A stretch of DNA of 64,000 nt, taken from positions 86,738,001 to 86,802,000 of the forward strand of contig OX597825.1 of assembly GCA_951406725.2 (NCBI GenBank). Direction: 5' to 3'. The position numbers and the translations under genes were made by a program. The DNA comes from Octopus vulgaris. Its lineage: Eukaryota. Within the stretch, counting starts at the first letter, position 1. Every line of letters begins with the position of its first letter. A model generated the notes under the pieces. It was not told the DNA's origin. It searched no databases and saw nothing but the letters and a program-made list of their open reading frames with translations. Positions 37,146 through 53,797 of this stretch are shown here, piece by piece.

Positions 37146-37410
37146 GGTGGTGAGCTGGCAAACTCGTTATTACGCCGGATAAGATGCTTGGCGGCATCTC
37201 ATCCGTGTTTACGTTTTAAGTTCAAATGCAGCCGAGGTCGCAAGCGTGAGTGACATTGTTAGTGCTTGTGAAAGTCTTGCGCAGATACGACAAGGTTGCA
37301 CAAGACCTTCATTGGCTACGAAGCCGGAAGTGTGGATACGAGGTAACCGGTGCTTGGTACCAACATACACCAGGAAAGGAAATAGACGAAAACGGGAAGA
37401 TTTCTGTGAA
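37144..37410 (+). mobile_element. SINE A 5' half fused to an R4/Dong-type fragment
   Basis: SINE head ends at GCCGAGGTCG (about 37240), then DIVSACESLAQ / DKVAQDLHW...WYQHTPGKEIDENGKI. Confidence 0.6.
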
Positions 37411-38227
37411 TATATTTTTTATTAACAATATCAACACACAAACAAACAAACTAAAACATAAGCCAAACGTCAGCATGAGTGAATGGAACGAGTGAAACAA
37501 ATTATAAAGAATAAAGAAATAATAACGACAAAGGCCGACAAAGGAACTGCAGGAGTCTTGATGGACACAGATTATTATAAAAATCTTGTGTTATCCATAT
37601 TAGAAGACGATGCATACTATGTTAAGGCATAACGCTGCAGTGAACCCAAAATAATGAAAAACCTTTATAAACATTTATAAGCTTATGTCGAGAAGGACTC
37701 ACCGACGAGGAATGCGACAAGATCACCAATTTCAGATGCAAATCTAACCTCTTCTATGGCATACAAAAGTGGAAAATATGGAAAAAGAAGTGAATCATGC
37801 CCCTTCACCAAACGATCCGAAGTTAAGACCAATAACAGCTGGTCTTGCATGCATAAGGCCATTGCATAAGTAATTTTTTGGATAACCTGCTCAAGCCATT
37901 TCAGAAGGTTCATAAGAAATGACTTAGACATACTTAACCGTTTCCCCAAAACAGTTAACGAGAAAAACATCTTTCGAAGTAGTGGATTTCAATTGAAACA
38001 TCCGTCATGACAGGTATAAAGGTGATTAAATTCTGGCGAGATAATTATACACCTGAACTCCTCTATGCCATAAAAATTATAATTAAAGGACTAAAAATTA
38101 TCGTAGAGGATAATTATTTTATGTTCAATGTCAACTTTTCCCGACAAAACTCTGGGACTGCGATGGGGACGAAAAGAGCTCCTTTATTTGCAAATATAGT
38201 TAAAGGCTACATAGAGATCATGCTGTA

Positions 38228-38433
38228 CAGGGTGGGCCAAAAATCACGCACAAAATAATTTCAATATGCTCCGGAATTGTCAAAGACGTGCTTCAGTTTT
38301 TCTAAAATTGAATAAAATAAAATAATGATGAATACAAACGTTCTTGTTATATGATGAACAAAATGAATAATAATGATAAAGTAATATAAATAAAATATCA
38401 AATATTTTGGTGCATAACTTTTGACCTACCCTG
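38228..38433. mobile_element. Tc1/mariner-type MITE inserted in the PLE RT
   Basis: TIRs CAGGGTGGGCCAAAAATCACGCACAAAATA and TATTTTGGTGCATAACTTTTGACCTACCCTG; TA duplication. Confidence 0.85.
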
Positions 38434-39657
38434 TACAAAAAAAAAAATGGAAAAGGAAACTATTTCTCCTTTTACGTACAAGAAGACTGGAAGAGGTACC
38501 ATGACGATTGCTTCAACCTGTGGAATGAAAGCACAGAGAAACTAATAGAATTTGAAACACTTCGCAATAGAATTAATGAAACTATTTAATTCACCATGGA
38601 ATATGGCCATATGCAACTCACATTTTTAGACATCTTTATAAAGAAAGTTAACAACGAAATAGAGAACGATATTTACTATGAACCTTCGGAGTCCAAAGAA
38701 TAGCTTCCATTCAATCCGTGCCATCCATGACATACCAGAATGAATGTAGCCAAGTCGAAAGGAACTGTACAGTAGTGCCTGATACAAACATCTGTGACAT
38801 AAGACTCCAGGAACTGAAGGATTAATTTCTTGACAGGAATTACCCACCGCCATTAATCGATAATCGAATTGAACGAGTCCCAAAACTCAGTATACAGAAA
38901 ACAATGAAGACCACAACATCACATTTCATAACATACTGTTACAACAAAAGGACCCCAGGATGGGTGAAATCCTCCAAAGGCACATGTCGTCATAAAGAGT
39001 AAAAGACAATGCAAAGTAATGGCTAAGACAGAATTAGGGGTCAGACTCCACGCAATCAGAACAAAAACGCGTACGACACAGCCGTGGTGTTTACTTGAAT
39101 CTGACAAAGGAATCAGCGATCCGTTTTAAAGAAGAATAATTCTTTACTTAAGAATTAACTTCACCTGTGCATCTCAATATCTAATCTATTTAATAATATG
39201 TGGGAAGGATACATTTGACAGACAGAGAAAGCTTTACGCGAAAACATGGGACCCAGTAAACATATAAACACATGCGCAGGTAAGAAGCAAGCAAATTTCA
39301 CGATTTTCCTCTCTACAAATTTGGGGACAACACCAACGCATTATTAAAGAAATTCCGATGACACGAAAAGGGAGACAAAAGCATCTACCACTAACAAGGC
39401 TGTAACCGTTACTGGGGCCACCACCACGATTGGCAACACCACTACTCCTTAGACTAAGGGCTGCTATGAACCACAAGAGCCATTGACATATTTCTTTTCA
39501 CTTATATTAACAGGTCATCACCAACAGTTAAGAAGAAACACAAGGACACAGAATGCAGCTGCGTGGGATTTTTATGAGGACAAAATATATAAAAATCCTG
39601 AACTGATTCTCATGAAAGTCTAAGCTAATTCATTTCAATTTTCCTTTCCATTTTATT

Positions 39658-42045: not shown

Positions 42046-42314
42046 ATGGTATAATCAAAATACCATCACGAGTGGCAAGCGAATTATCAGCCGTACAGGC
42101 AAATTAATAAAATATATACATACAATATTGGATATGTACATATATACACAACTGTACCACATGAGCACCTATATCGCTAAAGATAGAAGTAAAAAAATAC
42201 TTCTGTACCACGGAATAGTCACAAATCTATTTCAGACACAGAGAGGGAAAAGTATCAGTGAACAATAATAACGTCTTACCTCTACTAGGTCAGAACAAGC
42301 AAATGCTGGTCAAC

Positions 42315-42370
42315 TTGGTACCGGTTTCGAAATTTAGCGTCAAATAGGTGCCTGATTTCTCATCAGCCAA
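42315..42370 (-). ncRNA. Type I minimal hammerhead ribozyme (intact core)
   Basis: Minus strand: TTGG CTGATGA GAAAT...ATTTC GAAA CCGG TA CCAA; stem I TTGG/CCAA, stem II GAAAT/ATTTC, palindromic stem III ACCGGT, GUA cleavage triplet. Confidence 0.85.
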
Positions 42371-43164
42371 AGTCTGCCAGCTTATTACTACCAAAATCCT
42401 GCCATATCATGCCTGCAAAAGTTAGTTTGAAGTGACTAACCATATATATATATATATATATATATATATGCTTAACTATACACAAACACACAGAAACACA
42501 CATATGTGTTTTGCTCTCTGTTCATGCGTCATAGCCTATTCGGATATGCATTTTACATATGGATTTCCAAAGTTTAACATTGATATTGAGCACAAATATA
42601 TTTGTTTTTATGTCGTGTTTAGGCAGAACATCATAGTATTATGTGTGTTTGTGTGTGCATAGGGAGAAAAGAAGAAAAAGAGCGAAGGAGAGAGAGAGAG
42701 CAAGCGAGAGATTTCAAATGGTAGCTATGCAGTTGAAGAGGACACAGTAGAATTGGTTATGTAAGTTATTAGTTGTGAATAATTGGCAACAGATAAACCT
42801 CCTTCATCCGTTAATATATGGAAGATGTATTGAATCTCAACAATAAGATGTAAAATATACTTTTTATATATATTTTTTTGGTATATTTCCATTGAAACAA
42901 TTGAAATAATCTAGATTATGTGTGTGTGTTTGTGTACACGCGTTTGTGTGTGTATGTTTAAACTCACACAACAAACACATATGTAAGTATATGTATATAT
43001 ATATATGTATGTATTATGTATGTATGTATGTGTGTATGTGTGTGTGTGTATATAGGCAGACACAGAAGGTATAATTATTATATATGCACATGATTTATAT
43101 ACATGTTATATGTATATGTATATATATATATTTATATGAGTATATATACATGTGTATATATATG

Positions 43165-48196: not shown

Positions 48197-48256
<60 letters not shown>

Positions 48257-48261
<5 letters not shown>

Positions 48262-48460
48262 TGAGACCACAAAACCAAGGCTTTGTGGAATTTATAGAAC
48301 ATTTATAAAGAGAAAGCTAGTTCTACAGCTGTTTCTAGGATATTAGGGATATCCCCTTCATCAGAGACGATGTGAGAGAGTGAATTAGAGGTAACTCTAC
48401 TATTTCCCCCTATTTAACTCTCTCACATCGTCTCTACTACCAATATATTATTTAATAAGC
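48257..48460 (-). mobile_element. (TA)n-embedded fragment with hammerhead motif and short inverted duplication
   Basis: Minus strand 48321-48370: CTGATGA AGGGGATATCCCTAATATCCTA GAAA CAGCTG TA (stem I poorly paired); inverted arms 48363-48380 and 48418-48435. Confidence 0.65.
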
Positions 48461-48468
48461 ACAATATG

Positions 48469-48512
<44 letters not shown>

Positions 48513-48664
48513 AATTAAGGACTGAACACGAAAAGTGGACAGTCAACATGCTAGATATAGACGTCAAATCGCCTTTCACCACAAAAAGATTATGTTCTCA
48601 GATCAAACTCAACACAAAACCATAGCAATAAACAAGTGAAAAATATACGAAATAAAATAATTAC

Positions 48665-48729
48665 CCATGTACTAACTTAGTTTCAGCTGTTATTTTCCGC
48701 AAGGAAAACTGCAGCCATCATCAGCATGG
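48665..48729 (-). ncRNA. Type I hammerhead ribozyme (inverted copy)
   Basis: Exact reverse complement of 49216-49280. Confidence 0.85.
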
Positions 48730-49215
48730 TCCGTTATAAATGTAATTTGCTGGACTAGATGCAAACACGATACCGAAATATCGCGTGCATGGAGTTCAGC
48801 CTATTACATTTGAATATATCTTTCAAATGCCTTTACTTTGGCGCGTTGAAACCCGAGAAAACTAGCCTGCAGCTAATAATTAGCAGCAGTTAATTTATCG
48901 GTTAGAGAACATATTTATTTATATAAAATTAATTAAGGGTAGAAATTGATATTTATCAATTAAGACCAGTGGTCTAGCATATTAAAAAAGAATCCGAAGA
49001 TTAAAATATTTATATATACCAATTAAGGACTGAACACGAAAAGTGGACAGTCAACATGCTGCTAATTATTAGCTGCAGGCTAGTTTTCTCGGGTTTCAAC
49101 GCGCCAAAGTAAAGGCAACTGAAAGATATATTCAAATGTAATAGGCTGAACTCCATGCACGCGATATTTCGGTATCGTGTTTGCATCTAGTCCAGCAAAT
49201 TACATTTATAACGGA

Positions 49216-49280
49216 CCATGCTGATGATGGCTGCAGTTTTCCTTGCGGAAAATAACAGCTGAAACTAAGTTAGTACATGG
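49216..49280 (+). ncRNA. Type I hammerhead ribozyme, copy 1
   Basis: CCATG CTGATGA TGGCTG-cag-TTTTCC-ttgc-GGAAAA-taa-CAGCT GAAA CTAAGTTAG TA CATGG; predicted cleavage after A49275. Confidence 0.9.
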
Positions 49281-49723
49281 GTAATTATTTTATTTCGTAT
49301 ATTTTTCACTTGTTTATTGCTATGGTTTTGTGTTGAGTTTGATCTGAGAACATAATCTTTTTATGGTGAAAGGCGATTTGACGTCTATATCTAGCATGTT
49401 GACTGTCCACTTTTCGTGTTCAGTCCTTAATTGGTATATATAAATATTTTAATCTTCGGATTCTTTTTTAATATGCTAGACCACTGGTCTTAATTGATAA
49501 ATATCAATTTCTACCCTTAATTAATTTTATATAAATAAATATGTTCTCTAACCGATAAATTAACTGCTGCTAATTATTAGCTGCAGGCTAGTTTTCTCGG
49601 GTTTCAACGCGCCAAAGTAAAGGCATTTGAAAGATATATTCAAATGTAATAGGCTGAACTCCATGCACGCGATATTTCGGTATCGTGTTTGCATCTAGTC
49701 CAGCAAATTACATTTATAACGGA

Positions 49724-49788
49724 CCATGCTGATGATGGCTGCAGTTTTCCTTGCGGAAAATAACAGCTGAAACTAAGTTAGTACATGG
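49724..49788 (+). ncRNA. Type I hammerhead ribozyme, copy 2
   Basis: Identical to copy 1; predicted cleavage after 49783. Confidence 0.9.
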
Positions 49789-50231
49789 GTAATTATTTTA
49801 TTTCGTATATTTTTCACTTGTTTATTGCTATGGTTTTGTGTTGAGTTTGATCTGAGAACATAATCTTTTTGTGGTGAAAGGCGATTTGACGTCTATATCT
49901 AGCATGTTGACTGTCCACTTTTCGTGTTCAGTCCTTAATTGGTATATATAAATATTTTAATCTTCGGATTCTTTTTTAATATGCTAGACCACTGGTCTTA
50001 ATTGATAAATATCAATTTCTACCCTTAATTAATTTTATATAAATAAATATGTTCTCTAACCGATAAATTAACTGCTGCTAATTATTAGCTGCAGGCTAGT
50101 TTTCTCGGGTTTCAACGCGCCAAAGTAAAGGCATTTGAAAGATATATTCAAATGTAATAGGCTGAACTCCATGCACGCGATATTTCGGTATCGTGTTTGC
50201 ATCTAGTCCAGCAAATTACATTTATAACGGA

Positions 50232-50296
50232 CCATGCTGATGATGGCTGCAGTTTTCCTTGCGGAAAATAACAGCTGAAACTAAGTTAGTACATGG
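50232..50296 (+). ncRNA. Type I hammerhead ribozyme, copy 3
   Basis: Identical to copy 1; predicted cleavage after 50291. Confidence 0.9.
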
Positions 50297-50824
50297 GTAA
50301 TTATTTTATTTCGTATATTTTTCACTTGTTTATTGCTATGGTTTTGTGTTGAGTTTGATCTGAGAACATAATCTTTTTGTGGTGAAAGGCGATTTGACGT
50401 CTATATCTAGCATGTTGACTGTCCACTTTTCGTGTTCAGTCCTTAATTGGTATATATAAATATTTTAATCTTCGGATTCTTTTTTAATATGCTAGACCAC
50501 TGGTCTTAATTGATAAATATCAATTTCTACCCTTAATTAATTTTATATATATATATATATATTTATATGTTACTATTAGTTTCCGGCTTTTCAACCTTGA
50601 ATCTTTTATATATGTTTCTTCCTAGCCTTTTCTGTCCCATTTTTAGTTCGTTATGTCATGTGGGTAGTGCCCGATGATTGTGCTAAGACACCAGATGTAT
50701 TAAAAATACTGTCTGCTATGCTCTCCGTATATGAAGCTAATAGTAACACATAAGAACATATATTGCGTTTAATAACTAATTATCTCTCACCAGAGTACGT
50801 TTTCGTTGATGACGGAACAATATA

Positions 50825-51557: not shown

Positions 51558-51899
51558 CATACATACTTATCCTCTATTTAAGAGTCCGAAATGCACGCTC
51601 GTAGCCTCTGACCATTTATACGAAAATATATAATTTATTCCTTTTGTCAACGTTGAGCATTTTTTCTTCTTCAGTTTCTGCAGGTGGACTCTGTAAAAGT
51701 TAAAACTAAGAATTCTATAATTGTTCTTACTGTTGACTGTTTTAATCGAGTTATACCACAAGCAAGCAGCTGACACGTCGGCGAAAATATTCTTATACCT
51801 TAAAGGAATTATAAAAGATTAATAATACAGAAAACAGACAACTTGATGCGAAGGTCTTGTTCGACCGCAAACTTCTTTTGATGACCATGATAAGTTCAT

Positions 51900-53170
51900 G
51901 ATACTGATGCAAATTACAATCCTAAATTTGTTATTAAAATGTCCAAGCAATGTCCGCTTAGCAGTGTATTGCTACAACATCTCGAAGAAGAACTAATTCT
52001 CCTAATTAAGAATATAAAATTCTGGTTAATGAACAATCGATTTAGCTGAAGGTGAACAACAGTCTACACAGCAATAAAAAAAATTTCATCGACACGTTAG
52101 TCAATTTGACAAGACAAAAATTTATATTAAATCGCCTGCAATATCTATCAACGCCATATTTTTAATTATATCACTTATAAATATATGAAAGCACAAAATG
52201 AATGAAATTACTCTAAAAGGACAGAAAATTACTTCCAAATTGAACAGAACGGAAGCCCTTTCCCATGGAGTCCGTATATTACATTGAAAGACCACAAAAC
52301 TTATTTCCAACAGAAACCATCCGTTCGTCTCATTAACCCTACTAAAACTGACTTTCATAAAATTAGTTAAGATATACTGGTTAAAATAATTTCTATAATC
52401 AAACTATTATCCCCCTTATCTCTTGTAGGCCCCCTTATCTCTTGTAGGTCCCTTTATCTCTTGTATGTCCCCCTTATCTCTTGTATGTCCCCCTTATCTC
52501 TTGTAGATACCCCTTGTCTCTTGTAGATCCCCCCTTATCTCTTGTAGATCCCTTTATCTCTTGTAGGCCCCCTTATCTCTTGTAGGTCCCCTTATCTCTT
52601 GTAGGTCCCCCTTATCTCTTGTAGATCCCCCCTTATCTCTTGTAGATCCACCTTATCTCTTGTATGTCCCCCCTCATCTCTTGTAGGTTCTTTTCTAGCT
52701 CTTGTAGGTACCCCCTTACCTCTTGTAAGTCCCCTCTCATCTCTTGTAGGCCCCCCTTATCTCTTGTAGTACGACTACATATCACGATGGAATGATTCAA
52801 ACACATTTCTAACTGAAACTAATGCAAACCCTTACAATTTGACATCTAAGAATACTACTCCTCAATCACTCAATGACGCGTAGAACTTCTTTGCCTGATA
52901 TAAATGAGAACATCTTTTGATGTTAGCACGAGCGACAACCATTCTGTTAACATACCTTAATTATCGATAAATAAATGAAATGAAGAAGAAATTAACGCTG
53001 TTATTGAATCGATATGAATTTCGATAACTAAAGACCAAAATCATTGTATATCATCCACGTCATCAACTGAACCAAACTATAAACCATATGCACAGTCTGT
53101 CTAACAAACCCCAAAATATTATCAACAACATTGATAAAAACATCCTCCTCTCACCCAATATTTGTCAACC
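51900..53170 (+). pseudogene. Decayed Penelope-like (Neptune-type) RT, split by a minisatellite
   Basis: PYITLKDHKTYFQQKPSVRLINPTKTDFHKIS*DILVKI (from 52272) and QFDI*EYYSSIT (from 52835); boundaries approximate. Confidence 0.75.
52408..52769. repeat. 19-21-bp minisatellite, about 18 copies
   Basis: Unit CCCCTTATCTCTTGTAGRY. Confidence 0.95.
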
Positions 53171-53797
53171 AGCAAATCTTTATTCAGGTAGGCAGAGAGG
53201 AGTTCATAAATTTTTCCAAGATATAGATTTAATATTTTTCTCCCAGTGTAGGATTTAGTTCAAGGAATGACAAGCCATATGTCATAAAATTGTTTAGTTT
53301 TGTTCTTCAAATCCTAGATGAAGACAATAGTGTTCGGCCGAGGTGTACTTATAGAGGTTTACTAAAAGTGTACCTTTAGAGGTGTCCTTGAATCGGTTTT
53401 TTTATAGAGTTGTTCTAAAATAAATCTATCAGACACTATATTCCTTACCTGCCAGAGTTTCAATAACAATCGTTCAGTTTTTAATGACCGTATATTAATT
53501 AGTCATATTGTGTTTTATTTTGTAAGATTTTAAAATTTAAGATAACTAATCCAAGTCCTTAAAAACTGATTTAAAACAGTTTTAAAGCCAACCCAAAAGG
53601 CAATCTTTCTCTGAAAAAGATAAAAAAAGGAAAGCAATAAAAATTTCACCGAATATTTGTCAAAGCTCTACGTATCAATTTATCTAGGGTAATTCATTCC
53701 TCACATTATTTCGTACAGCATAATTTTTCGTTTACCATGTTTGGTTCTTAATTCTTGGAAGTATATTTCATGTAAACTTATTAAGTTCAAATCCTCA

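Follow-up and report, generated by a model that had tools for sequence, protein, structure and literature searches.

Two-armed retrozyme inserts in (TA)n tracts of Octopus vulgaris fit best with one RNA primed from two DNA ends

The inserts of a 508-bp hammerhead-bearing repeat in the genome of Octopus vulgaris fit best, for the family as a whole, with the copying of one RNA from two primers at two start sites, and we regard such two-ended priming on a single RNA as very probable. The anatomy of the inserts, the partition of their outer ends between two sites (A and B), the haplotypes shared by both arms, the matched stops of the arms and the microhomology at their joints are all read directly from the assembly.

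The focal insert is located at 48470-50560 of the window, that is, of the whole stretch of 64,000 nucleotides of contig OX597825.1 that was analysed. A repeat search of the window revealed an array of a non-coding repeat with a period of 508 bp, which is numbered from the predicted cleavage site (u1 at 49276, 49784 and 50292, plus strand). The left arm (48503-49060, minus strand) runs from u118 through one cleavage site to site A, corresponding to 1.1 units; including the TA overlap it is 563 bp long and shows 99.8% identity to the plus array. The right arm (49057-50549, plus strand) runs from u290 through three cleavage sites to site B and comprises 2.96 units. Both are joined head-to-head through the microhomology TGCT at 49057-49060 with an arm overlap of exactly 4 bases; overlaps of at least 4 occurred in 2.6-3.1% of random joins used as controls. 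At the outer end of the left arm, site A (TTGGTATATATA, u160-167, here 48510-48503) merges into the left target tract, (TA)19 at 48473-48510, sharing its last 8 bases, and at that of the right arm site B (TTTTATATA, u253-258, here 50544-50549) merges into the right (TA)n tract (50544-50562), sharing its first 6 bases. The stretch from site A to site B of the last unit (50451-50549, plus strand) forms a one-sided 'tail' of ~93 nt beyond an A end. With (TA)n on both flanks, any target-site duplication would be masked. The cleavage site coincides with no start or end of either arm, each arm exceeds one unit, and the arms join the non-equivalent positions u118 and u290 with no mirror positions. 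Apart from the two target junctions, the copies differ by the private changes TT>AC at 49118-49119 (u351-352) and G>A at 49363 (u88) and are otherwise identical. The initial annotation had described a minus-strand left arm and a plus-strand array joined via TGCT, outer ends at internal TATA stretches merging into (TA)n, and arms that are longer than one unit and not bounded by the cleavage site; coordinates, overlap and end sites agree with this description. The private substitutions that it noted in the first plus-strand unit are present as well, but are of no value as template evidence, the informative signal being variants common to all units and both arms. The focal insert is a long example of the family's normal product.

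Each cleavage site belongs to a predicted hammerhead motif. On the plus strand the motifs are found at 49216-49281, 49724-49789 and 50232-50297 with predicted cuts after 49275, 49783 and 50291, delimiting two complete cut-to-cut monomers (49276-49783, which has the private G>A at 49363, and 49784-50291); in the left arm the motif lies at 48665-48730 (minus strand) with a predicted cut between 48670 and 48669. It consists of the core CUGAUGA, stem II, GAAA, a short stem III, GUA and a 5-bp stem I that is open at both ends, which gives type I topology. One extra base occurs between A9 and stem II, a feature for which a viroid hammerhead provides precedent according to a reference title in PMC3376415. 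In an alignment of 11 rows, selected for diversity out of 28 distinct motifs whose relatedness inflates such tests, pairing was retained in 97.4% of cells with double changes in 5 pairs; 0 of 500 shuffles matched the pairing or covariation score and slid controls dropped to 26-42%. Rfam yielded no family at the gathering score in the window, and with the unit as query nothing relevant up to E = 10.

The longest stop-free frame over the repeated unit amounts to 36 aa on the plus and 45 aa on the minus strand, so the unit is non-coding; its GC content is ~0.33, and no LTR structure is present at the ends that merge into (TA)n. As no RT/GIY-YIG ORF is contained in the 508-bp element, it does not qualify as an autonomous EN+ PLE. 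For the monomer 49784-50291 a circular MFE of -141.5 kcal/mol was predicted (z -7.3 against 60 shuffles). Sites A and B are mostly unpaired in the predicted circle, inside a domain closed by u71-79/u265-273, and this A-B domain is followed by a long stem u22-62/u328-364. With tandem hammerhead units, non-coding low-GC sequence lacking an LTR, dispersed recent copies and a predicted self-paired circle, the 508-bp repeat is by its sequence a non-LTR retrozyme with predicted self-cleavage.

Several hundred young copies reside in TA microsatellites, the top copies being 98-100% identical, and exact junctions with (TA)n number 643 at A ends and 339 at B ends genome-wide. We examined 116 loci, comprising the 38 best-matching ones (focal insert included) and 78 chosen by end motif alone, namely 64 on contig C1 outside the first set and 14 on C2 with a B end and no listed A partner. 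The divergent two-armed layout was present in 97 of the 116, and their outer ends were A+B in 91 cases, AA in one, BB in one (the second end of which has no (TA)n) and irregular at one end in four. Against an expectation of 0.5, A+B in 91 of 93 corresponds to a binomial p of 4e-25. The motif-chosen two-armed loci (n=65) gave 63 AB, 0 AA, 0 BB and 2 others, and among the 19 loci not scored as two-armed three (L033, L132, L138) conceal inverted stubs of less than 26 nt, which also give A+B. Arms in the motif-chosen set are short (medians 117 and 203 nt), crossing the cleavage site in only 21 of 63 inserts, and both arms exceed one unit in 2 of 65 compared to 17 of 32 best-match loci. A sister family of 75-80% identity has a detectable inverted arm in 15 of 30 B-selected loci, and 15 of these 15 end near A. 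The family thus displays the Penelope-like layout of partial tandem, inverted 5'-truncated copy and one-end tail. The proposal that both ends of a (TA)n break prime, in likeness to the inverted pLTRs of PLEs, therefore holds family-wide. In the comparison with other insertions that the initial annotation had suggested, (TA)n targets and inversions were recovered, but freely permuted ends were not: the ends are fixed at two sites. The case named there as contrary, fixed ends unrelated to (TA)n, did not occur.

Some further features of these loci were recorded. In the sister family (L196-L225), which is older, stem II is longer and stem I is compensated (CTATG/CATAG); its A/B ends are the same. 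At L046:3696-4720 a single-armed insert of exactly two units is joined to (TA)n at site A on both ends. At eight loci (L036, L047, L050, L056, L058, L060, L061, L062) only the terminal B unit has a T>A change at u251 or u252, which would fit a (TA)n primer pairing some bases further across a mismatch.

The inner ends of the arms are coupled. In 26 of 63 A+B inserts both arms stop at most 12 nt from the same template position, compared to a permutation mean of 8.7, and none of 5000 permutations reached 26; the excess is confined to near-identical stops, the rank correlation of A and B stop points being not significant (rho 0.22, p 0.08). Of the 130 inner ends in the motif-chosen set, 43 lie at u51-75, at the predicted stems u71-79/u265-273 and u22-62/u328-364. 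Microhomology of at least 2 nt was found at 58% of 55 insert-free junctions versus 22% of controls (p 1e-8), and small inserts of 1-47 nt at 41 of 96 junctions. Several junction inserts (at L069, L073, L074, L105, L128 and other loci) resemble short re-copies of adjacent unit sequence. Among the 38 best-matching loci 22 haplotypes were distinguished, a few of the splits being alignment effects, and most variants are fixed in all units and both arms.

With respect to the form of the template, the initial annotation had left the choice between a circular and a multimeric one, which is right as an either/or; the data lean to the circle, and we favour a circular monomer over an uncleaved multimer as the reasonably likely template. 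The alternative, unlikely but of real weight, is the same two-ended, two-site PLE priming on an uncleaved linear multimer of a homogeneous source array, with extra units stemming from the source or from later tandem duplication. Uncleaved RNA is the dominant PLE substrate in vitro (PMC11167929), and A+B ends would also be expected on a multimer if a dimer were bound to one A-B domain. At L052 one variant, at u287, is common to both arms in register and not to all units, as a multimer template would give; the other 8 in-register shared counts represent one near-fixed family variant. For the 492T haplotype a 6.6-unit array could serve as linear source for 3 relatives, so that circle and multimer are not separated there. 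At 172 crossings of the cleavage site no indel was found within 4 nt, and such seamless crossings are compatible with both templates. Variants common to neighbouring units of one arm at six loci (L039, L053, L062, L063, L065, L066) suggest, as far as sequence can tell, that units also duplicate after insertion, and array length is then not a pure count of rounds.

Linear templating would, however, require homogeneous source arrays. For L045, and likewise for the pair of the focal insert and L031, the assembly contains no such array, in a search that rests on a single assembly from which longer source arrays may be absent. The variant 302T>C occurs genome-wide only at L045, in 4 of 4 copies and in both arms; 236C>G is present in 3 of 3 copies of L042 and in one copy elsewhere. 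The haplotype pattern of the focal insert was matched 14 times at 8 loci, and among these the focal insert and L031 alone are multi-unit. L031 extends back to u272, 18 nt past what the focal plus arm could supply, and the B arm of the focal insert is one unit longer than L031 could supply; neither is thus long enough to have been the linear template of the other. Moreover, variants private to single units do exist in the present arrays (82 unshared comparisons), but sharing in register between arms is limited to 1 site, and many variants are fixed array-wide, which argues for the circle.

Dual priming on two RNAs, which is the route proposed for L1 in the available text of PMC2837659, or repeated end-to-end jumps on cleaved linear monomers are improbable. 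Two separate RNAs would yield AA and BB inserts and mixed haplotypes, and the near-absence of these points to one RNA. Some inner ends at u7-17, near the cleavage site, would suit jumps, and a circle would be mimicked if the jumps returned to the same molecule; the 172 crossings with 0 indels stand against end-to-end jumps. About equally improbable is a single primer whose cDNA folds back or switches onto itself so that the inverted arm copies the first, akin to the self-priming described in the accessible part of PMC3846280. In its favour, the two arms often meet at one and the same unit position, which makes the junction near-palindromic (the 26 of 63 above), one arm is contained in the other in 67 of 91 A+B inserts, the focal insert among them, and a shared haplotype would follow trivially. 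In the remaining 24 of 91, however, neither arm is contained in the other, in 20 of them by more than 20 nt; the second arm is therefore not simply a copy of the first and a simple fold-back fails. It would also leave unexplained the near-absence of AA and BB and the fact that either arm may be the longer one.

A search of public sequencing runs for the unit listed no RNA run. Contigs of the public runs X1, X2, X4 and X6 (three studies, three organism labels) cover the unit deeply; none of them was seen to run across the focal junction or to bridge the (TA)n tracts, and no empty allele was seen in them. An assembly or fold-back read artefact, the chimeric case that the initial annotation had raised, is highly improbable: the junctions of the 97 two-armed loci differ in their breakpoints while the ends follow a strict rule, the focal joint connects u118 to u290, and head-to-head joints of the family occur in contigs of these runs (u59/u61 in X1 and X4, others in X2 and X6).

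To find a possible source of the enzyme, the genome was searched for GIY-YIG sequences, which gave 6136 candidates, of which 150 were scored. In a young Neptune-type PLE family (L176-L191, copies ~98% identical), the 781-codon frame for RT + GIY-YIG is intact and a cysteine motif precedes the nuclease, as PMC8557442 describes for Neptune. Copies of this family terminate in (TA)n, using two TATA sites ~40 nt apart. A short end is combined with a tailed end in 3 of 3 two-armed copies observed (L181, L183 and one pair on C1), and the 79 short ends listed on C1-C2 include no divergent short+short pair; short and tailed ends number 499:59, compared to 643:339 for A and B of the retrozyme. Also present in this PLE family are an overlapping stop-free frame of up to 479 codons ahead of the ORF, repeats following it, and a hammerhead-like motif in which TTGATAA replaces CTGATGA. 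No pLTR similarity to the unit was detected in 50 PLE loci selected by GIY-YIG (from the 150 of 6136 candidates scored), and distant matches considered as a homologous autonomous partner proved to be other retrozyme subfamilies. Judged by this analysis, the Neptune-type PLE shows the class of machinery and is a candidate rather than a proven partner.

Related elements also occur elsewhere in the window. A decayed PLE ORF at 37375-39204 (plus strand) is 30-37% identical to the 781-aa Neptune-type protein. A decayed RT fragment at 51800-53200 (plus strand) with the motif LKDHK...VRLINP, interrupted by a 20-bp minisatellite (52410-52769), gave no match in a search with the Neptune-type protein; we take it to be Naiad-like. 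Between a (TA)n tract at 48200-48256 and the left target tract, a different hammerhead-bearing element is located at 48258-48460 (minus strand), and its contig depth of tens of thousands in the public runs indicates a high-copy family. Another type I hammerhead-like motif with a 5-bp stem I lies at 42314-42371 (minus strand).

Cleavage, circles and enzyme are the parts of the mechanism that we infer. Probably a Penelope-type enzyme cut (TA)n on both strands and both DNA ends primed on one RNA, most plausibly a 508-nt circle. Transcription of a tandem array would yield RNA from which the hammerheads excise monomers, and ligation would turn these into circles. The A-B domain would be bound by a PLE RT/GIY-YIG protein, probably dimeric, which would cut (TA)n, whereupon one 3' end may pair with UAUAUAUA at A and the other with UAUAUA at B; by this difference in pairing, one end carries the 93-nt tail. 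Both RTs would run 5'-ward on the same template, most of them stalling at the long stem u45-80 and some going round one or more times (1.1 and 2.96 times for the focal insert), and the two cDNA ends would finally be joined head-to-head by short microhomology or small inserts. For a more general reading, whose two parts taken jointly we see as evenly balanced between right and wrong, PLE enzymes may integrate by obligate two-site twin priming, a dimer loading both break ends on one RNA flanking the tail, and on a ribozyme-made circle this may become double rolling-circle reverse transcription, in which two RTs chase each other and write back-to-back arrays. If true, the inserts would be direct genomic evidence for animal circular RNAs as retrotransposition intermediates, and PLE tails and inverted pLTRs would be explained in one step.

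According to Cervera and de la Pena 2020 (PMC7229834) and Li, Clavereau and Pollet 2026 (bioRxiv 10.64898/2026.07.22.740005), metazoan non-LTR retrozymes resemble the present family in their non-coding low-GC tandem units with type I hammerhead, their strongly self-paired predicted circle and the presence of PLEs in the same genome, and circle-templated tandem cDNA has been proposed for them. The unit of 508 bp compares to 170-400 in PMC7229834 and 51-972 in bioRxiv 10.64898/2026.07.22.740005. In contrast to our observations, inverted arms, fixed priming sites and (TA)n targeting do not appear in the text available for these papers ('inverted' gives 0 hits in that of PMC7229834). A further difference to metazoan retrozymes, as far as the same texts describe them, is that no homologous pLTR was found in the examined PLE loci of this genome. 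In vitro, 8 of 9 Xenopus retrozyme dimers did not cleave according to the accessible text of bioRxiv 10.64898/2026.07.22.740005.

EN+ PLEs (Pen2a_Av, PMC3846280; Naiad, PMC8557442, both in their available text) share with the family a head-to-head 5'-truncated inverted copy, a one-end tail, a preference for (TA)n and microhomology joints. Their tail measures 30-40 nt in these texts compared to ~93 nt here, and the element here is a 508-bp sequence without ORF whose arms are multi-unit arrays; the one-sidedness that they exhibit is measured in the retrozyme as near-strict. Arms that are not nested speak against the self-priming that PMC3846280 offers as explanation. With Poseidon PAc in vitro, both strands were cut and extended (Frangieh et al. 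2024, PMC11167929), two internal RNA start sites bracket the tail, the target is AT-rich and a dimer is predicted (PMC11167929). The PAc start is an AC-rich stem-loop not homologous to the target (PMC11167929), whereas here TATA runs are able to pair with a (TA)n primer, and the main text of that paper contains no report of one site per DNA end within a molecule. In L1 twin priming, as given in the available text of PMC2837659, two target ends likewise prime one RNA and inverted pieces are joined by microhomology. In that case the poly(A) end holds the first primer and the pieces do not have much overlap. The two retrozyme sites are fixed internal positions, the region copied is shared by both arms, and twin priming is the usual outcome (97 of 116 loci) rather than a variant.

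Already in print, therefore, are the element class, the inverted copy, the one-sided tail, the (TA)n preference and the two internal start sites. The near-strict rule of one site per end, the matched stops and the array-wide haplotypes were not found in the literature on Penelope/retrozyme twin priming, rolling-circle RT and cephalopod hammerheads/PLEs, a corpus with sparse coverage of subscription journals and with supplements (Suppl. Fig. S9 of PMC7229834, Fig. S1-S2 of PMC11167929 and those of the preprint) outside it. The origin of tandem and inverted PLE structures and of their tails is named as open in the accessible text of PMC8557442, and the spread of animal retrozymes by circRNA templates is, in the available texts of PMC7229834 and bioRxiv 10.64898/2026.07.22.740005, a proposal without genomic or biochemical proof. 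With its near-strict A+B rule, coupled stops and array-wide haplotypes, the Octopus family offers hundreds of young natural products, and it supplies a defined RNA (the u71-u273 domain), a target, (TA)n, and a candidate enzyme for a direct test.
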